Positions 1 through 63,269 of a stretch of 64,000 bases of DNA are shown here, in pieces (position 1 is the first letter of the stretch; each line of letters opens with the position of its first letter). The notes under the pieces were generated by a model. The model was not told where the DNA came from and did no database searches. It saw only the letters and a program-made list of their open reading frames with translations. Both the position numbers and the translations under genes were made by a program. This DNA comes from Escherichia phage AugustSocin: the sequence record MZ501052; one strand, written 5' to 3'.

Positions 1-894
1 TAAACGAAATGCTGGAAGACCATATATTTCTACTAATGGAACATAGTCCCAGACCTGAAACTTCATGCATTGTGCTTCTTTTTCAGAAATGGTTCCCTTT
101 AAAGATTTATTAGCGATTCCATTAGAAGTAGTACGTGATTCAGCTACTTCGGCGAATTCTTTAGCTTTACTAATTTCAGGATAAGCATCAAAAAGAAAAT
201 CTAGGCCTTCTGGTTCCTTTTTAACTTGCTCATGGTATACCAATTCGCCATCAATTAACACACCTTCTGGATGAATCTGGCGAGCTTCTGCAGTCATTTT
301 GATTAACTCTTCCTTGAGAAGATCTAATCCTAGATATTCATTACCAGCTCGTGATAAAAGACGAACATCATCTAATTCATCACCTCTGACTTCAGCAAAA
401 CAGCGAGCTCCATCAGCTTTTAGCTGTGCAAAGGCTGGAAATTTGATATTCTTATTAATGCCTTTTTCGTCATAAGAACTTGCTAGCATTTGAGGTTGTT
501 CAGGAATTAAACCTGGCCAAACTTTGTTTGCAATAGATACTGATGCACCGCATTCAAGGTCTCGCATCATCACCCGACGCAAAACTTCAACATCATCTTT
601 TTTACCGTCAGTAATATATCCAGTTAATTCCTCAATTGCCGCATTTCCAGTCAATTTCCGAGTAGCTAACGTGAATTCAATGAAGTCAAGCATATCGGTA
701 AGAGTCAACATTCCAAAACTCTGGGTAGTAATACCCGGTTTAGGCCATTTCTTGATATAATACTGTAACCCACGAGAATAAGTCAGACGATATACTCGTT
801 TAAGCAATTCATTATCTTTATTCTTTTCAAGAATTGCTTGCTTCTGCTTAGTTGAACCAATAGATGCTATTTCGTTCAGAATTTTAAGAATCAT
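1..894 (-). CDS. 30: DNA ligase gp30, N-terminal ~297 codons; gene continues beyond window start
   Basis: Reverse translation from ATG at ~894 gives MILKILNEIASIGSTKQKQAILEKNKDNELLKRVYRLTY... with adenylation motif KADGAR; frame open to position 1. Confidence 0.95.
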   Translation of the reverse strand, partial: MILKILNEIASIGSTKQKQAILEKNKDNELLKRVYRLTYSRGLQYYIKKWPKPGITTQSFGMLTLTDMLDFIEFTLATRKLTGNAAIEELTGYITDGKKDDVEVLRRVMMRDLECGASVSIANKVWPGLIPEQPQMLASSYDEKGINKNIKFPAFAQLKADGARCFAEVRGDELDDVRLLSRAGNEYLGLDLLKEELIKMTAEARQIHPEGVLIDGELVYHEQVKKEPEGLDFLFDAYPEISKAKEFAEVAESRTTSNGIANKSLKGTISEKEAQCMKFQVWDYVPLVEIYGLPAFRL

Positions 895-1160
895 TGTTCA
901 TCCTTTAGAGTTTGGTTTACAGCTCTATTATAAATCAATTCATCATTAAGCTCAGTCAAAGACCTGTGATACGTGGTTCTAACTTTATTTCCTTGCATCC
1001 AGTGCTTGACATAAATGAAACCTTGCTCTACACATTTTTTAAAAATTCGTTCGTCTTTTTGAGCTCGGAATTCTGGATTGCATCTAAAAAATTGATTTAC
1101 GTGACCGTAATCACGTGTAGTATTACCTTCATTTTCATAAATAGTGTGAACGACAAACAT
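891..1160 (-). CDS. hypothetical protein (T4 30.1 position)
   Basis: 89-aa ORF; stop overlaps gene 30 start (ATGA), start overlaps upstream ORF. Confidence 0.6.
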   Translation of the reverse strand: MFVVHTIYENEGNTTRDYGHVNQFFRCNPEFRAQKDERIFKKCVEQGFIYVKHWMQGNKVRTTYHRSLTELNDELIYNRAVNQTLKDEQ

Positions 1161-1996
1161 TAGAATGCTCCTTGGAAAATATTATCACCACTAGTAGGTC
1201 TATTATACAAATACTCTATGCCACCGGGTTTAATATAGTTCCATGTCTGAAACGGATGCGTCTGATATGGATGATATAGATTATAAGGATTAAATCCAGG
1301 AGTTCTCCAGGTAGTGTTCCAAGGAAAAGAATCGTTTTTAATCATCTTTTCAATTACATCTTTTATAGCTTTTTCACTATCAAAACTTTCTTTATTTTCA
1401 TTCGATGGAAAAAGCTTATTCTCTACATCATTCCATGTATAAACTCGCTGTGCAGTTTTTGGAATATTGTCACGCTCTCCTCGAGCCATCCAATAAACAG
1501 GAACATTTAATATTTCACTCGCATGATCGCAGTGGTGAGCGAGATCGTCAATATAACAAATTACGTTATATTTCTCTTTTGCCTTTTTGAACAACTCTTC
1601 TTTTGAAGAATCATGACCACACATCAATACTTCTGAGAAGGCACCAGGAAAAAGAGCATTCAAATTGAATTGACGATTCAGCAGAGCGTCAATAGAATCA
1701 CCCAGTGCTGTAACAGCTACAAAATTATAATCTTCTTTTAATTTGTTAATTACACACAGGGCATCTTTATATGGAGACAAATAGCGAATAAAATCTGAAC
1801 GATTATACTTTTCGATTAATTTAACACCAAGTTCTTCATCGCAATTAAAGAGCTTACCAGGAGAAATAAATTTTTCGTCCTGAATCATTTTTAAAATATG
1901 TTCCAACGGAAGATTATATTTTTGGGCAAAATAAGGAAGGCCTGATTGCCAGCTTAAACATACACCATCAATATCAGTCAAAATAGTAGGCTTCAT
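1160..1996 (-). CDS. HAD-like hydrolase family protein (T4 30.2 position)
   Basis: 278-aa ORF; N-terminal LTDIDGV motif typical of HAD phosphatases/nucleotidases. Confidence 0.65.
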   Translation of the reverse strand: MKPTILTDIDGVCLSWQSGLPYFAQKYNLPLEHILKMIQDEKFISPGKLFNCDEELGVKLIEKYNRSDFIRYLSPYKDALCVINKLKEDYNFVAVTALGDSIDALLNRQFNLNALFPGAFSEVLMCGHDSSKEELFKKAKEKYNVICYIDDLAHHCDHASEILNVPVYWMARGERDNIPKTAQRVYTWNDVENKLFPSNENKESFDSEKAIKDVIEKMIKNDSFPWNTTWRTPGFNPYNLYHPYQTHPFQTWNYIKPGGIEYLYNRPTSGDNIFQGAF

Positions 1997-2844: not shown

Positions 2845-3131
2845 TAGAACCTCATCTGAAAACCATGCGATTTAACATTACCGCCGCCAATATCAGAAAT
2901 ATTAATTTCACGCGCAATCGAAGGATCGATGTCAATTTCACGATTAAGTTTAGCGATAGCTAAAGTATCACGCCCATTTACAGTACGGAACTCTAAAGGA
3001 CAAACCACATCAACGTAATTTTTAATCGATTCACTGGTAGGTTGCAAATGAGCAGGAAGGTCTTTGGGCGCCTTTGAGAAAACCACTTCACAGAAATTTT
3101 TACGGGTATCAAAATAAGTAGTCATAAACAT
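2844..3131 (-). CDS. hypothetical protein
   Basis: 95-aa ORF preceded by GAGG ribosome-binding site. Confidence 0.55.
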   Translation of the reverse strand: MFMTTYFDTRKNFCEVVFSKAPKDLPAHLQPTSESIKNYVDVVCPLEFRTVNGRDTLAIAKLNREIDIDPSIAREINISDIGGGNVKSHGFQMRF

Positions 3132-3172
3132 AGTATTTTCCTCAGTAAGGGGCCGAAGCCCCTCATTTTATT

Positions 3173-3550
3173 TTAAATATCAAATTCATTAAGAACTACA
3201 TCAAAGATTGCTTCAAGATGCTCAGGTTTAGCTCTGTTACTCAGAATATGACGAATCCAAGTTTTAACCAAAAGCTTGCGATTATCACCATTCCAGCAAG
3301 GATGAGTCCCTAAATCGCGTTGACGAAAATCATCATCCAGAGCGATTTTAAAGTTGGAACCTTCCATTGTGATTGAAACCGTGATGCCATTTTCAAATCG
3401 CATATAAACGTAATTAGGAGTCATATACTGTTCAATTTCGCATACTGATCCATTTTGATGTTTCCAAAGGCAAATAGTATCAATAGAACCTGCAATACCA
3501 TTAGAAACATATTTACGTTCAAAGTTGATGTAGTTCATTTTATTCTCCAA
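3173..3550 (-). CDS. hypothetical protein
   Basis: 125-aa ORF downstream of an early promoter-like element. Confidence 0.6.
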   Translation of the reverse strand: MENKMNYINFERKYVSNGIAGSIDTICLWKHQNGSVCEIEQYMTPNYVYMRFENGITVSITMEGSNFKIALDDDFRQRDLGTHPCWNGDNRKLLVKTWIRHILSNRAKPEHLEAIFDVVLNEFDI

Positions 3551-21131: not shown

Positions 21132-21785
21132 TTAATACTTGCAAGATTTCACAGTTTCAATGAAAACACTTTTAGCTTTCTGTGAATCAATATTTAAAAT
21201 TTTTCTATAAGCCTTTAACTTTATAGAATAATTATTCCAGACTAAATTATCAGTCTGTTCATCATGTTTATCAATTAAATTTAAAAACGAATCAAGCAAG
21301 ATAAACGTCTCAAACGAAATTATGTTCGATTGCAGAAGTTTAAAAATATAACTTGATTGAACTTTTGGATTATATTCAAAAATTTCTTTAAAAGCAGAAA
21401 CTTCAACTTTTTTACTAAAATAATAAATATTGCGAATATCTTCTTCAAACTTAAATTTAATTTGCTTTAAGCGTCCGATATATTCACGATAAAACACAAG
21501 TGCATCAGCGTCAGAGATGTCACCAATCCAAGCATCTTGGTTAGCAACCAAATTACTTATAAAGATTAAAGCAAGTTCCTTTAATTTATATTTTTCTGAT
21601 AACTTCTGAAAAAAATACTTATCCCTTCGCTTTTGATAAGCGGCATCAGACACCCGCATGCACCAATTATACTTAATAACATCATACTTTCCATTCATAT
21701 GCTGTTTTATCATTAAGTATAATTTATAAACTGATTTACCATCAATGTATCTTTCACCACCAGCAGGCATGCGGAGTTTAATCAT
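21132..21785 (-). CDS. 59: helicase loader gp59
   Basis: 217-aa ORF MIKLRMPAGGERYIDGKSVYKLYLMIKQHMNGKYDVIKYNW..., T4 gp59 length and position. Confidence 0.93.
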   Translation of the reverse strand: MIKLRMPAGGERYIDGKSVYKLYLMIKQHMNGKYDVIKYNWCMRVSDAAYQKRRDKYFFQKLSEKYKLKELALIFISNLVANQDAWIGDISDADALVFYREYIGRLKQIKFKFEEDIRNIYYFSKKVEVSAFKEIFEYNPKVQSSYIFKLLQSNIISFETFILLDSFLNLIDKHDEQTDNLVWNNYSIKLKAYRKILNIDSQKAKSVFIETVKSCKY

Positions 21786-22120
21786 AGTAGAAAATCTAAT
21801 GTATTAGTTTTTTCACAACGAACAACAGAAGGACGTAAAAGATTTTCGTCAATGGCTTCTGACTGAATTTTTTCAATTATACCTGAAGGAATAAATTTAG
21901 CAAATTGAGTTTCAGGAATAGAGTTTTCTTCCAAGAATGCTGTCGTAGCTTCAAGATAACTCATTCCAAACTCTTCTACCATTTTTTCAATAATAAATCC
22001 ATTTTCTTGACGATCAAGAAGCTTTGCTATTTCATCCTTTTCTTTCTTAATTGAAAGTTCTTTTTCTGAAAGACCGGTCTCATCGACCGGACGAATATCA
22101 TTTAGAGAAAACTGTGTCAT
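21782..22120 (-). CDS. 33: late transcription co-activator gp33
   Basis: ~112 aa from MTQFSLNDIRPVD...; position between 59 and dsbA. Confidence 0.8.
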   Translation of the reverse strand: MTQFSLNDIRPVDETGLSEKELSIKKEKDEIAKLLDRQENGFIIEKMVEEFGMSYLEATTAFLEENSIPETQFAKFIPSGIIEKIQSEAIDENLLRPSVVRCEKTNTLDFLL

Positions 22121-58601: not shown

Positions 58602-58802
58602 ATGGTACAAAAATTAATGGCACTTGTTAATGCCATCAAAGGTAATAAAAAGCGTATAGCTTTTACTATTTCTGCTATGGTAGGAATTTTACTCTGGAAC
58701 TTTATTTTATCACCTGTTGCAATTGCACATGGTATTAATATTCCAGTAGTTACTCTTGATACGTTCGTAGATTTAGCATTTGCTTTAGTTGGGTTAATTT
58801 AA
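58602..58802 (+). CDS. small membrane protein encoded on the opposite strand between genes 56 and 61
   Basis: 66-aa ORF with AAGGAGG 4 nt before ATG; two hydrophobic segments (FTISAMVGILLWNFILSPVAIA, VDLAFALVGLI); 3' end overlaps gene 61 stop. Confidence 0.55.
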   Translation: MVQKLMALVNAIKGNKKRIAFTISAMVGILLWNFILSPVAIAHGINIPVVTLDTFVDLAFALVGLI

Positions 58803-59827
58803 ATCTTAGCATATTTAGATAGCCGCATTTTAGCCATCAACCCCTGTGCAATATTATTTTTCATATATTCCATAATTTGTTCAGGGGTTGCACCTTCCTT
58901 TCTAATCATATCATTAACATCTTTTGATTTCCAGGGAGATTTATCCCAAAACATAACCCTTTCTCCTGCATCAACTAATTTAGTCATTCGCTTAATAGTG
59001 TCAGGATGACGAGGTTCATTATCTAAAACCCACACACGTCTATCTTTAAATGGAACAACTTCTAGGTCTAATTGACCACCCGTAATAGCTATACCATTTT
59101 CAATAAAAAGTGAATCTATAGGTCCTTCTAGAACATATACATCACCATCTTTAACTCGTTCGACTCCATAGATTTTTGTTGCCTCAGGATAAGCTTTGAT
59201 GGTGATATATTTTTGAGGAGCATCTTTCTTTAATGCACGTCCTTGAAAAGACTCAGCTTTTCCATTAGCATTATAAATTGGAATAACAAGACGAGGCTCA
59301 GGTATTTCCTTTTTATATGTTCCTGGTGCTATGCTATTAACTAATTTAGGCCATTCAGTTGTAAACCAAAGATATTTCCATTTATCCTTTGGAATACAAC
59401 GAGCTTTTACATATTTTATAATTGGATGGTCTTCCGCCAGTTTATCTAATCTAACACATGACGGAAGAGATTTAATTATTTTCTTCTCAGGTTGTTTAGG
59501 AAGTTCTTTAGGTTTTTCTACTGGACGACTTTTACCTTTTTCTTTTCTTATTTCAAAGATATACTCACGATATAAATCGGGTTCAAACTCCTTTAAATAT
59601 ATTCCGATTGGTGCATGATAGTTACAGTTATAACAATGAATATTTCCTTCATTATTATCACCATAATACCATCCACGAGCTTTATTCTGATCGGTTTTTG
59701 AATCTCCACAAACAGGGCATCTAAACCGCAATTTAAAAGTTGAACTATTATTTACTTGTGTGAATTTAGGTAAATGAGCTAATGCACGATACGCAAACTC
59801 ATTATCAATCCAAGGTATTGATGACAT
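58799..59827 (-). CDS. 61: DNA primase gp61
   Basis: 342-aa ORF with zinc ribbon CPVCGD...CYNC and Toprim-like EGPIDSL / DNEPRH motifs. Confidence 0.95.
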   Translation of the reverse strand: MSSIPWIDNEFAYRALAHLPKFTQVNNSSTFKLRFRCPVCGDSKTDQNKARGWYYGDNNEGNIHCYNCNYHAPIGIYLKEFEPDLYREYIFEIRKEKGKSRPVEKPKELPKQPEKKIIKSLPSCVRLDKLAEDHPIIKYVKARCIPKDKWKYLWFTTEWPKLVNSIAPGTYKKEIPEPRLVIPIYNANGKAESFQGRALKKDAPQKYITIKAYPEATKIYGVERVKDGDVYVLEGPIDSLFIENGIAITGGQLDLEVVPFKDRRVWVLDNEPRHPDTIKRMTKLVDAGERVMFWDKSPWKSKDVNDMIRKEGATPEQIMEYMKNNIAQGLMAKMRLSKYAKI

Positions 59828-59829
59828 TT

Positions 59830-59994
59830 TTACTCTTCTTTTTCTTTAGATTCCTCTTTCTTCTTTTTAGGAATCTGTTCAGGACCTTTATTTACTACAG
59901 CGCCCGACGTTGTTCCAGTAGAGATATTTTCAGGATTACCACCTGAATCTCCAGCTACCATATCTTCTTTAATAAATTCTTTATATGTTTTCAT
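59830..59994 (-). CDS. small acidic/basic ORF (~55 aa) between 61.1-like ORF and gene 61
   Basis: MKTYKEFIKEDMVAGDSGGNPENISTGTTSGAVVNKGPEQIPKKKKEESKEKEE; stop immediately before gene 61 ATG; below track cutoff. Confidence 0.4.
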   Translation of the reverse strand: MKTYKEFIKEDMVAGDSGGNPENISTGTTSGAVVNKGPEQIPKKKKEESKEKEE

Positions 59995-59995
59995 A

Positions 59996-60352
59996 TTAAC
60001 CTCTATTCATAAAAGCATTAAAAATTTGGTCATCAATAGATGGCACAGTAATATTTTCTGCATCATTTAGCAAATCATTAATTTCATCAGATAGCATAAC
60101 ACATGTGCCTTTATTTCCTGTAATTGTTACTGCACAATTACGAACGTTTTCTTTATCAAATTTTAGGTTAATATTTTCGTAGTGAAAATCCTTTAATGCC
60201 GAATATATCTTTAAAATGAAATTGTCTTTTACTACAATAAACCCAACCTCACTATTAAAACGTGGTTCATGGAAACTGTAATAAACCTTTTCATCTATAA
60301 AATCGTATGAAATTTTTTCCATTTTTAAATATGAAAATTCAGAACTATACAT
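59996..60352 (-). CDS. hypothetical protein (61.1 position), paralogue of C-terminal part of next ORF
   Basis: 118-aa ORF ending SIDDQIFNAFMNRG, shared with ORF 60354..60995. Confidence 0.55.
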   Translation of the reverse strand: MYSSEFSYLKMEKISYDFIDEKVYYSFHEPRFNSEVGFIVVKDNFILKIYSALKDFHYENINLKFDKENVRNCAVTITGNKGTCVMLSDEINDLLNDAENITVPSIDDQIFNAFMNRG

Positions 60353-60353
60353 A

Positions 60354-60995
60354 TTAACCTTTATTCATAAAAGCATTAAAAATTTGATCGTCAATAGAAA
60401 CATTTACTTTAGACTGTTTTTCTGATGGTAATTCATATCCACATATTACAATTTTGTGATCAATATCAAAATACACAGAAGCAATATGATTAATGATGTT
60501 TTCAGTAAAGTCTAAATCAACATCAATATCTTTTTGACCACAGCCCAAAGGATAAATAATGCGAGTAATTCGATTATCTTTAACAAATATTCCACCGACA
60601 TACTCTGTGCTGCGTTTAAAGTTTACACGTTTCCTAAATGAAAAATATTCAGGTTCTTTATGAGCCCGACTCATAGGACACAATGAGTAGCTAGAATAAG
60701 AGATGTCAAATCCTACACCTTCAATATGAGCCAACGCGTCATGATTAAACCAATTATAATCATATGCCAAATCCATTATATTGTAATATGTGAAAGGCAC
60801 CGGATTAACATCATGTGTTGTACCTTTAAAATCTGCCCAGGCAACGATTTCGTTATCTTTAACAATTACAAAAATTGTGTCAATAAGATATCCACGGTTA
60901 TTTTCATCAGGCGTTATATTATAACATTGTGCATCAGGAAATTTACCGTATTTAAACGGTGGATTTTTGTGCATATAATAAATCATATTATTCAC
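60354..60995 (-). CDS. hypothetical protein (61.2 position)
   Basis: 213-aa ORF; C-terminal ~80 aa (IFVKDNRITRIIY...SIDDQIFNAFMNKG) paralogous to ORF 59996..60352. Confidence 0.55.
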   Translation of the reverse strand: MNNMIYYMHKNPPFKYGKFPDAQCYNITPDENNRGYLIDTIFVIVKDNEIVAWADFKGTTHDVNPVPFTYYNIMDLAYDYNWFNHDALAHIEGVGFDISYSSYSLCPMSRAHKEPEYFSFRKRVNFKRSTEYVGGIFVKDNRITRIIYPLGCGQKDIDVDLDFTENIINHIASVYFDIDHKIVICGYELPSEKQSKVNVSIDDQIFNAFMNKG

Positions 60996-61281
60996 CTGTG
61001 ATTTCGGTTACGATATTTTTGTTATTAAAGTTTTTATCGCAATACAGAACATAATTATACTGCATTACACCACCAGACTTAAGTTGTTTTTGCACTTCAG
61101 CTTTCATTTTAGGACGATCGCGCTCAACAATATTCATAATATCCGCTTCAATTTGAGTTTCAACTTCAGTCTGATCTACAGTCATAGACCATTCACACAA
61201 GTCTTTATCATATCCTGCCATAGCAGGCTGAGCAGCACAAGAAGCCAAAGTAAAAATTGTAGCAAAAATAAATTTTTTCAT
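60988..61281 (-). CDS. putative lipoprotein (61.3 position)
   Basis: 97-aa ORF with signal peptide and lipobox MKKFIFATIFTLASC. Confidence 0.55.
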   Translation of the reverse strand: MKKFIFATIFTLASCAAQPAMAGYDKDLCEWSMTVDQTEVETQIEADIMNIVERDRPKMKAEVQKQLKSGGVMQYNYVLYCDKNFNNKNIVTEITGE

Positions 61282-61304
61282 GATAATCTCCTCAGTAGTT
61301 TATG

Positions 61305-61340
61305 TTTATATAGTATCTCAATTTCCAACAAAAGTAAACA
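61305..61340 (-). promoter_or_regulatory. early promoter-like element
   Basis: Minus-sense GTTTAC, ~17-nt spacer, GATACTATATAA -10 region. Confidence 0.45.
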
Positions 61341-61341
61341 G

Positions 61342-61599
61342 CTATTTTAAAACTTCTGCATAATCACATGTTACAAACTGTTTCTCTAGCTTAACGATCT
61401 TACGAAAATGCCTTTTACACTGACGAATCTGCCTCTTCGTAGGACGTACAACAAACTTGATAAATTCCACTCGACCAAATGGAGGGCTTTCTTCTGCTGG
61501 AATATCTAACACCAATTCCCATGTATCCGCAATAAGTGCTTTGAATTGAGTATTTTTCCTGACGTTATACGGAGTAGGTTTAAATAAAACAATATGCAT
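61342..61599 (-). CDS. hypothetical protein (61.4 position)
   Basis: 85-aa basic ORF. Confidence 0.5.
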   Translation of the reverse strand: MHIVLFKPTPYNVRKNTQFKALIADTWELVLDIPAEESPPFGRVEFIKFVVRPTKRQIRQCKRHFRKIVKLEKQFVTCDYAEVLK

Positions 61600-61600
61600 A

Positions 61601-61783
61601 TTATCCTCGGCAATCTACTTCACATACTTTCTTGTCATCAATGAAAGCTTTAACTAATGCTTTATTAACTTCAGCATATTGAGTAGTAGCCCATTGAACG
61701 TCATCTTTCATCATTGTGATTTCTTTAGTAAACATGTTTTCATTCTTAAACCACCCCATAAAAACTACCTTTACCAATTCCAT
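61601..61783 (-). CDS. dmd: Dmd-like protein (antitoxin against host RnlA/LsoA in T4)
   Basis: 60-aa ORF MELVKVVFMGWFKNENMFTKEITMMKDDVQWATTQYAEVNKALVKAFIDDKKVCEVDCRG directly downstream of gene 41; matches remembered T4 Dmd length and position. Confidence 0.7.
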   Translation of the reverse strand: MELVKVVFMGWFKNENMFTKEITMMKDDVQWATTQYAEVNKALVKAFIDDKKVCEVDCRG

Positions 61784-61805
61784 AACAATCTCCTCATTTA
61801 ACCAA

Positions 61806-61843
61806 CAAGACTACTATACCATAGTCTTGTCAGTTTGTAAACT
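61806..61843 (-). promoter_or_regulatory. early promoter with hairpin around -10
   Basis: Minus-sense GTTTAC then CAAGACTA-TGGTATAG-TAGTCTTG inverted repeat, upstream of dmd. Confidence 0.5.
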
Positions 61844-63269
61844 AAAATTTTAATTCATTTGCCAAAGCATCTAACTGAGCTCGAGTGGATTCATTTCTTT
61901 GATAGCGATTCTGTTCAGCCTGAATCTGTTGTGAACCTGCTACTTCACTCACTTCAGTTGGAGTAGAATCTTGTTCAATTTCTACCCATTTCTGATTTCC
62001 CTTTTGAACACCCATTAAAAACTTATTCCACTTATTCTTATCGCCATATCGTGATTTGATTTGCTTAATGAGTTGTTGTTCAGCAGCTGCTAGCTCCTCG
62101 GTTTCAATGACCGCAAGCATAAAATCAGCTGTTGCTGGAAGACCAGCAGATTCTGCAATATCGCTCATGTTAACATCGGAAGAGTCCCAAGCTTGTTTAC
62201 CGACCTGTGCTGCAGTCCAAAGAACAGTTTCGGTTTCAACAGCCAGAGCACGCAATTCCTCTGCAATAGCTTTAACAGTTGTGTAACTATTTTCTGAATA
62301 AACTCTGATGCGGCAAGATTTACAAATACCTAGATAGTCGACAATAATGATTGTTGGAACAAAATTCTTCTTGAGCTTCAATTCATTCAAGAGAGACCTG
62401 AATGTGTTAGCATCTGCCCCACCAGTGGGATACTGTTTAACGATTAAACGACCAAGAGTAGATTTCTCACGCCATTTTTCCATTTTTCCTTTATACTCAG
62501 CGTAAGAAATATGCCCATCATCAATGTCATCAAGAGAAACATCAAGCATATTAGCATCAATACGCTTAGCACAGACTTCTTCTGCCATTTCCATGGAAAT
62601 GTAAAGAACATTATGTCCGAGCTGTAAATAATCTGCTGCTAATGAACACAATCCTAATGATTTACCAACGTTAACGCCAGCCATTAAAACGTTCAGTGTT
62701 CCAGTCTCAGCTCCGCCTTTAGTAATTTTGTTTAGAATTCTGAGTTTAAATGGAACCTTACGAGCTTTATTCATATAAGATAGCCAACGTGCTTCGTAGT
62801 CATCCATCCAATCATGACCAACGTAACTATCAAATGAAATTGATAATGCTTGGCGCATGATGTCAGGAATAGCACCAACATCCGGCATTTTCTTATTTCG
62901 TTTTTCCGGAGGAAGTTCAGCATTAGTTTGAATTTCGATTATTTTAGACGTAGCATTAAACATCGCCCTTTGCTGAACATATTTTTCTGTTTCTTTTACT
63001 AACCAGCTGTGGTCTTCCGGAGAATCAGCTAGTTTTGAAATAAGTGTTTTTACACCAGAATATTCTGTTTCAGTAAATGAACTATTTTCTAATGCAACAT
63101 TTAACGCATTAATAGATGGAACGCTATGATACTCATTAACATGAGATTTAATTAATTTGAATGTATTTTTAGCTGGACCACTTTCAAAATATTCTGAATC
63201 CATATATGGCCAAACTTTTGAAAAATAAGCTTGATCAAATATGAGATGAGAAAGAATAATTTCTACCAC
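61842..63269 (-). CDS. 41: replicative DNA helicase gp41 (DnaB-like)
   Basis: 475-aa ORF (T4 gp41 length) with Walker A GVNVGKS. Confidence 0.97.
   Translation of the reverse strand: MVEIILSHLIFDQAYFSKVWPYMDSEYFESGPAKNTFKLIKSHVNEYHSVPSINALNVALENSSFTETEYSGVKTLISKLADSPEDHSWLVKETEKYVQQRAMFNATSKIIEIQTNAELPPEKRNKKMPDVGAIPDIMRQALSISFDSYVGHDWMDDYEARWLSYMNKARKVPFKLRILNKITKGGAETGTLNVLMAGVNVGKSLGLCSLAADYLQLGHNVLYISMEMAEEVCAKRIDANMLDVSLDDIDDGHISYAEYKGKMEKWREKSTLGRLIVKQYPTGGADANTFRSLLNELKLKKNFVPTIIIVDYLGICKSCRIRVYSENSYTTVKAIAEELRALAVETETVLWTAAQVGKQAWDSSDVNMSDIAESAGLPATADFMLAVIETEELAAAEQQLIKQIKSRYGDKNKWNKFLMGVQKGNQKWVEIEQDSTPTEVSEVAGSQQIQAEQNRYQRNESTRAQLDALANELKF

Follow-up and report, generated by a model that had tools for sequence, protein, structure and literature searches.

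A 64,000-nucleotide (nt) stretch of Escherichia phage AugustSocin (sequence record MZ501052; the whole stretch is referred to here as the window) carries, side by side on its minus strand, adfA (T4 gene 61.2) and a gene for a relative of 118 amino acids (aa), and both end in a repeated sequence that leads directly into the next start codon. As the best explanation of these features as a whole, we consider it likely that the slot downstream of the spackle gene (sp) houses adfA and a single-domain relative that share a C-terminal tail, that recombination at the junction exchanges them and that the bodies ahead of the tail serve as binding modules. Directly downstream of spackle, members of this family vary in number (0, 1 or 2) and type. 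The window is from a Tequatrovirus, and a 1.6-kb query around the locus was 99% identical to Shigella phage Sf23 and matched 664 phage records.

The repeated junction and its two genes

The original prediction held that two neighbouring open reading frames (ORFs) share a C-terminus and an internal block, and this stands: both minus-strand ORFs end in SIDDQIFNAFMN(R/K)G, an upstream block reads VGFIVVKDNFILKIY versus VGGIFVKDNRITRIIY, and BLASTP aligns the two proteins over 106 residues with 34% identity (E = 3e-8). The duplicated junction of about 50 base pairs (bp) that it described is likewise present, as one direct repeat of 49 nt returned by a repeat finder (46 of 49 positions, that is, 94% identical; spacing 358 nt), although the second interval, given as 60346-60398, was shifted by about 2 nt (the copies are offset by 358, not 356). 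A 37-nt core of the repeat with one degenerate position has exactly two matches in the 64-kb window, and none of 100 shuffles contained any match. On the coding strand, each copy consists of 14 codons (SIDDQIFNAFMN-R/K-G), TAA, a single T and the next gene's ATG; the repeat is the coding sequence of the shared C-terminal peptide plus a stop/start coupling junction, and the last two tail codons, (A/C)GA GGT, very probably serve that gene as its Shine-Dalgarno sequence as well.

The 210-aa ORF matches the full Pfam model of AdfA (PF23813, model positions 1-211; E = 1.5e-136, 453 bits), is also assigned to phrog_3781 and is annotated in Sf23 as 'similar to T4 gp61.2' (gp, gene product); by this homology it is AdfA. 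The gene had been called from a GTG at 60995 (213 aa) and is real, but that start is probably wrong, as the ATG at 60986 lies one base after the spackle stop and is the start annotated in Sf23. AdfA, described as anti-DarT factor A by LeRoux et al. 2022 (as cited in PMC11257639, PMC11825919 and PMC9391042), binds and neutralises the ADP-ribosyltransferase toxin DarT1 (PMC11257639, PMC11825919), and the substitution R164H switches on DarT1 binding in AdfA of RB69 (PMC11257639). The equivalent residue in the window is His167, within TENIINHIAS. AdfA gave only a chance-level match in PADLOC (Cas13Cterm, E = 0.015), an NCBIfam scan returned no match, and a sequence-profile search of the PDB returned nothing (best E = 0.079).

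In its AlphaFold2 (AF2) model, AdfA is composed of two domains (residues ~2-95 and 113-181) that have the same order of secondary-structure elements and are separated by a low-confidence linker; of the two proteins, the 210-aa one has this two-domain architecture of ~210 aa and the 118-aa one has a single domain. The model suggests that AdfA is a tandem of one small domain, a claim that rests mainly on the predicted order of elements (by sequence, the internal duplication has z = 2.4, with 59 of 2,000 shuffles reaching it, and an hhalign probability of 4%). The AdfA of the window is also a mosaic: residues 1-58 (60813-60986, minus strand) are 86% identical to the Mosigvirus (RB69-like) protein and 39% to the T4 type, and after residue 58 identity is 95% to the T4 type and 79% to the Mosigvirus type, the switch falling at a conserved DVNPVPF block.

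The 118-aa ORF matches PF23813 over its C-terminal half only (positions 113-211; E = 9.1e-8, 32.2 bits, the curated gathering threshold being 27 bits) and falls in a PHROG family of its own (phrog_4122, E = 1.9e-72). Its paralogy with gp61.2 is not new, being already in the annotation of RB32, in which the gene is labelled 'similar to gp61.2'. Beyond the Pfam match, the paralogy that had been proposed from the letters is borne out by hhalign (97.5% probability for the 118-aa family against the AdfA C-terminal half) and by Foldseek against a viral structure library (BFVD), in which the 118-aa model retrieves a 212-aa AdfA-like protein (E = 4.8e-5) as well as a 145-aa VR25 protein (16% identity, E = 1.4e-4). 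The body is predicted with high confidence (predicted local distance difference test, pLDDT, ~90 for residues 8-99) as five strands, a helix, a strand and a helix ahead of the tail, and the same order is predicted in both AdfA domains, in keeping with the shared upstream domain originally claimed. The same Foldseek search also found a 157-aa protein of Yersinia phage fPS-65 (BFVD A0A449C4E3; E = 6.2e-5, 27% identity), which may represent an AdfA that is truncated or split, or else another subfamily.

The tail contributes about half of the BLASTP score between the 210-aa and 118-aa proteins. Once the last 14 residues are taken off, the two align locally with a score of 49, where shuffles average 27.8 (z = 4.0; 9 of 2,000 shuffles reach 49), and the hhalign probability given above falls to 15.8%; AdfA against a 146-aa family of Dhakavirus scores 97.8%. 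The joint alignment of the families is collinear and retains, without the tail, a block EPxYFSF...VGxIxVKDNxI and weaker matches, which together with the models supports a domain common to the 118-aa protein and the AdfA C-terminal half.

We propose that the divergent bodies would act as target-binding modules, because AdfA–DarT1 binding is published and the specificity residue 164 lies in a helix of the C-terminal domain. At the aligned position the 118-aa protein has Asn72 and not His. It is best seen as a binding module that would work alone and with a specificity of its own, and it most likely binds a different toxin or defence protein; this is the weaker part of our proposal. DarTG2 suggests itself as one candidate, since T-even phages withstand it by a route that has yet to be explained (PMC11825919).

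A conserved C-terminal tail on divergent bodies

At least six subfamilies encoded just after the spackle gene share the tail, S(I/V)DDQIFNAFM(N/K)(R/K)G, almost without variation, and proteins of other genera, which use different synonymous codons, are among them. The subfamilies comprise AdfA (206-216 aa), the 118/119-aa type, a second 119-aa type (P0061), a 125-aa type (P0062), a 143-144-aa type (P0057-P0059) and a Dhakavirus type (122-148 aa). The last of these, a third body type with the same peptide end (122-166 aa, phrog_8539), came from the 13 viral contigs that matched a degenerate DNA pattern for DDQIFNAFMN. Between subfamilies the bodies share 16-35% identity and the tails hardly differ. 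Against PF23813, the Dhakavirus-type family and the others with the tail reach 16-26 bits, below threshold; the match covers either nothing but the tail or a portion of the C-terminal half (the 118-aa protein of metagenomic locus L026 scores 22 bits over model positions 131-211). Word-indexed homolog searches returned 5, 16 and 38 clusters, and an exhaustive profile search of 1.84 billion representatives returned 8 clusters only, the tail being present in all sequences examined; judged by these searches, the tail-bearing family is small and confined to T4-like phages.

In the models, the tail is a low-confidence helix (pLDDT 45-51 in the 118-aa protein and 49-66 in AdfA), and the linker ahead of it differs in length by up to ~25 residues. 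Because an invariant, flexibly tethered and amphipathic helix sits on fast-diverging bodies, it most likely docks on a conserved partner or is needed for the activity of all members. That it is instead part of the fold or an oligomerisation helix, and makes contacts with the protein itself, we regard as unlikely. Such a role would agree with the predicted helicity, with the placement of I, F, F and M on one face and with the upper confidence values in AdfA, but it leaves the invariance of the tail on bodies so divergent, and the variable linker, unaccounted for; co-variation of the tail with the body would be expected, and none of five models of the 118-aa protein places the tail confidently. 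The published T4 adfA deletion, 61.2(del65-196) (PMC11257639 Table 1), leaves residues 197-208 of the 208-aa protein (gene at 1256-1882 in locus L028), that is, exactly DDQIFNAFMNRG, and the absence of a phenotype in that mutant therefore says nothing on the tail.

An extension of the docking proposal, possible but doubtful in our view, is that the tail is a portable tag that tethers interchangeable, fast-evolving target-binding domains to one conserved phage or host partner, in which case the slot would be a plug-and-play array of anti-defence adaptors and the tag would double as a recombination handle. If so, the docking partner might be, for example, a replisome or single-stranded-DNA-associated protein at the site of DarT action. 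A regular-expression scan for the binding motif of the gp45 clamp, LDFL[FLY] (motif from PMC6212786), found no match in the tails. In this phage, motifs of that type occur at the C-terminus of gp33 (TLDFLL) and in a loop of the ligase (GLDFLF): gp33 (112 aa) lies at ~21782-22120 on the minus strand, and the window opens within an ORF, presumably DNA ligase gene 30, whose loop motif for gp45 binding, LDFLF, lies at 190-204 (minus strand). By eye, the tail also did not fit a PCNA-interacting protein (PIP) box or the beta-clamp pattern QL[SD]LF.

An improbable reading of the repeat is that it is kept as a nucleotide signal, such as a region for the initiation or coupling of translation, a middle promoter that depends on MotA or a structured RNA. 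Some features of the DNA would suit this, given that the last codons provide GAGG 6 nt before the next ATG, that stop and start are 1 nt apart, that the Lys/Arg codon tracks the downstream gene (see below) and that GAGGNTAATATG-type junctions (Shine-Dalgarno, TAA, one base, ATG) are enriched in the window (8 against 1.1 expected), where they appear to be a general coupling grammar of the genome. However, among 29 tails there are 11 DNA haplotypes, with synonymous variants at 9 codons and replacements limited to I/V and R/K, and in locus L026 the two tails are ~76% identical in DNA (counted by hand) with the peptide kept but for two replacements (I/V and N/E/S-type). As the peptide is kept while synonymous codons vary, the constraint acts on the peptide and not on the DNA. 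A ribosome-binding region would in any case account for at most the last 5-6 of the 14 codons, and RNA at the junction folds no better than shuffles (z = +1.6 and -0.9).

The promoter variant of this reading starts from the match of both tails (59993-60017 and 60351-60375, minus strand) to a loose formula, TGCTT-N13-TAATAT, a T4 middle promoter proper being defined by a MotA box, (a/t)(a/t)TGCTT(t/c)A, with TAnnnT ~12 bp downstream of it. Loose sites of this kind number 22 in the window against 14 expected (2 of 100 shuffles reach 22), the GCT codon in the core of the box becomes GCC or GCA in other genera, and a -10 element at this place would start transcription beyond the next ATG; the match is probably due to chance. 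In 58700-61900, no terminator-like hairpin was found and promoter-like sites were at chance level.

Cassettes and gene map between sp and 61.1

Four natural arrangements are found between sp and 61.1: AdfA with the 118-aa gene (the window, Sf23, RB32, RB68 and Sf21), AdfA only (T4 and fPS-2), the 118-aa gene only (NBG2, pSs-1 and T2) and neither (SA20RB). Queries that span the junctions placed AdfA-to-118 in 157 records and sp-to-118 in 141, which sum to the 298 records that hold the 118-aa body at all; the C-terminal half of AdfA is in 486 records. The T4-type junction, composed of the AdfA body, one tail and 61.1, equals the two-gene form minus one 358-nt repeat unit. The penultimate tail codon is AAA (Lys) before a 118/119-aa ORF and AGA (Arg) before 61.1 in Tequatrovirus, with no exception in the loci examined; because this codon tracks the downstream gene whichever body lies upstream, the pattern is that expected of crossovers inside the tail. 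In metagenomic contigs, PF25676 (T4_Spackle) lies upstream of tail-bearing cassettes, each of which is followed by stop-T-ATG or a short spacer.

Homologous recombination in T-even phages is very active. The ~50-nt copies, one at the 3' end of every cassette and all in the same orientation, would let this recombination cross over between copies, and such a crossover would add or remove whole cassettes in frame and leave translation of the next gene undisturbed. We infer, with good support from the sequence comparisons, that crossover between cassette copies is mediated by the junction; it would explain both the polymorphism (both, adfA only, 118 only or neither) and the movement of the R/K codon with the downstream gene. 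The earlier suggestion of recombination at a repeated junction is supported in this way, since the boundaries of the four arrangements coincide with the junction and the R/K codon segregates with the gene that follows. Within a genome, the two tails agree in more codons than would be expected from codon usage (10 of 12 in the window, P ~0.03; 12 of 12 in RB32, P ~0.0003), which may reflect gene conversion or recent exchange.

The other half of that suggestion, module duplication, finds no support as a recent event. In its fullest form, it would make the 118-aa gene a recent tandem duplicate of part of adfA and the repeated junction a leftover with no function. This we judge very improbable, even though the two genes are collinear neighbours on one strand, their junction DNA is 94% identical and T4 is known to amplify the same region by way of short homologies (PMC9391042). 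No more than 49 nt recur, in contrast to the nearly identical full-length units that mark a recent segmental duplication; the bodies are ~30% identical, barely significantly so without the tail, with saturated synonymous divergence, against 13 of 14 identical positions in the tail. The same tail, in different synonymous codons, stands on divergent families of Dhakavirus, Mosigvirus and metagenomic T4-like phages, and 141 genomes have the 118-aa gene alone; the identity of the junction DNA mainly reflects the peptide that is conserved across the family.

That the 118-aa ORF is a decaying adfA fragment or a spurious ORF is hardly credible, for although it matches only half of the AdfA model and T4 does without it, its ratio of non-synonymous to synonymous substitution rates (dN/dS) is 0.28-0.31 (0.28 relative to the Sf21 ortholog, which is 76% identical), it falls in a PHROG family of its own and has a confident AF2 body, its length is kept over 298 records and in orthologs of 45-76% identity, and it is the sole family member in T2. 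By its dN/dS the ORF is under purifying selection, and together with the records that hold the body and the AF2 model this makes it a real gene.

Several points weigh against the proposal of exchangeable, tail-bearing binding modules. Without the tail, the similarity of the bodies is marginal by sequence, and both structure models were built from one joint alignment, which may bias them towards each other; the low pLDDT of the invariant segment may also stem from an alignment without covariation there. The targets of the 118-aa protein and of the tail are themselves inferred. T2 (PV958097.1) has a 118-aa AdfA-like gene directly after sp (1251-1607) and no adfA; it has been described as naturally without an adfA homolog, and T2 lacking adfN fails to plate on DarTG1 cells (PMC11825919). 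The paralog alone is therefore not enough to neutralise that DarT1 at native levels, a negative that is weak rather than decisive because T4's own AdfA behaves alike. In the AdfA-less forms, sp ends in another 3' allele and is followed by a spacer of 12 nt, and these forms hence did not arise by simple tail-to-tail crossovers; the events behind them, whether insertions or deletions, are older or more complex. The spacer, ttagagg(t/c)ta(g/a)t (2154-2165 in locus L004 and 1796-1807 in L005), resembles the last 12 nt of the tail (atagaggttaat) and may be the scar of an earlier cassette loss.

Every gene of 58.8-63.3 kb is on the minus strand, and in the direction of transcription the order, on the basis of the Sf23, RB32 and T4T annotations, is gene 41 helicase, dmd, 61.4 (tifA), sp, 61.2, the 118-aa ORF, 61.1 and gene 61 primase (Table 1). 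Between genes 56 and 61, a plus-strand ORF of 66 aa at 58602-58802 shares 4 nt with the 3' end of gene 61; it is labelled 'predicted membrane protein' in Sf23 and dam.1 in T4T.

Table 1 Features of the spackle-proximal slot, its neighbours and related metagenomic loci
Feature	Position	Strand	Remarks
adfA (T4 gene 61.2)	60354..60986	-	210 aa from ATG 60986; two predicted domains and C-terminal tail
118-aa single-domain AdfA-like paralog	59996..60352	-	T4 lacks the gene; present in T2, RB32 and Sf23
Junction repeat copy 1	60350..60398	-	AdfA tail codons SIDDQIFNAFMNKG 60357-60398; TAA 60354-60356; spacer T; ATG of 118-aa ORF 60350-60352
Junction repeat copy 2	59992..60040	-	118-aa ORF tail codons SIDDQIFNAFMNRG 59999-60040; TAA 59996-59998; spacer T; ATG of 61.1 59992-59994
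Gene 61.1, 54 aa	59830..59994	-	phrog_1823, E = 7e-34; annotated in Sf23, RB32 and T4T; fixed neighbour downstream of the last cassette
sp (spackle)	60988..61281	-	Fixed upstream neighbour; sp stop followed by T-ATG of adfA, the same stop/start grammar
GAGGNTAATATG-type stop/start junctions	7289, 23291, 32389, 39973, 53219, 59992, 60350, 61597		One is the dmd-to-61.4 junction
Metagenomic T4-like contig L025, after spackle	1075-1873		145 + 119 aa
Metagenomic T4-like contig L026, after spackle	560-1349		143 + 118 aa
Metagenomic T4-like contig L024, after spackle	3001-3378		Lone 125-aa member

Relation to known systems

AdfA is among the few phage inhibitors of toxin–antitoxin (TA) defence with an identified target. 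The 210-aa ORF is AdfA with the His allele at the residue-164 equivalent, and the 118-aa ORF shares its C-terminal domain and tail; the smaller protein differs from AdfA in having one domain and not two, Asn at the specificity position and a body that is ~30% identical. In the AdfA literature (PMC11257639, PMC11825919, PMC9391042), the protein is described as small and without homology to known families, and its two-domain build, the conserved tail and the 118-aa paralog go unmentioned. Our data suggest that single-domain relatives of AdfA are common, with one in T2, and that all family members share an invariant, tethered tail, such that the single-domain relatives together with the tail provide concrete candidates for new anti-defence specificities.

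The locus is the same as that of T4 comprising dmd, tifA/61.4 and adfA, which was named the 'anti-TA island' (Srikant et al. 2022, PMC9391042), the window having dmd, 61.4, sp and adfA, and it likewise suggests that anti-defence genes are gained and lost through recombination between short repeats. In that study, however, the repeats were microhomologies of 2-10 bp and the products laboratory amplifications of identical units (PMC9391042). Here, by contrast, a peptide-coding repeat of 49 nt flanks diverged cassettes, and the variants are natural alleles. If our reading is correct, the locus is a clean natural example of a conserved coding end that doubles as a recombination handle for the in-frame exchange of cassettes.

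Arbiol and colleagues are said to have described, in 2010, modular shuffling in the hyperplastic regions of T4-type phages through promoter-early stem-loop cassettes. The likeness is that small non-essential early genes are swapped between conserved genes and are bounded by repeats; the difference is that in the present locus the cassette's 3' coding end, together with the stop/start junction, makes up the repeat, in which no early promoter or stem-loop was found.

C-terminal epitopes that bind the sliding clamp are known from T4 gp43, gp33 and gp55 (PMC2988020, PMC6212786), and in this respect the tail is comparable as a C-terminal peptide; the epitopes TLDFLL (gp33) and GLDFLF (ligase) differ from the tail, IDDQIFNAFM. 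The cited papers do not report the tail, the modular build of the proteins or the variable occupancy of the slot; this amounts to an incremental advance on AdfA and the anti-TA island rather than a new kind of system.

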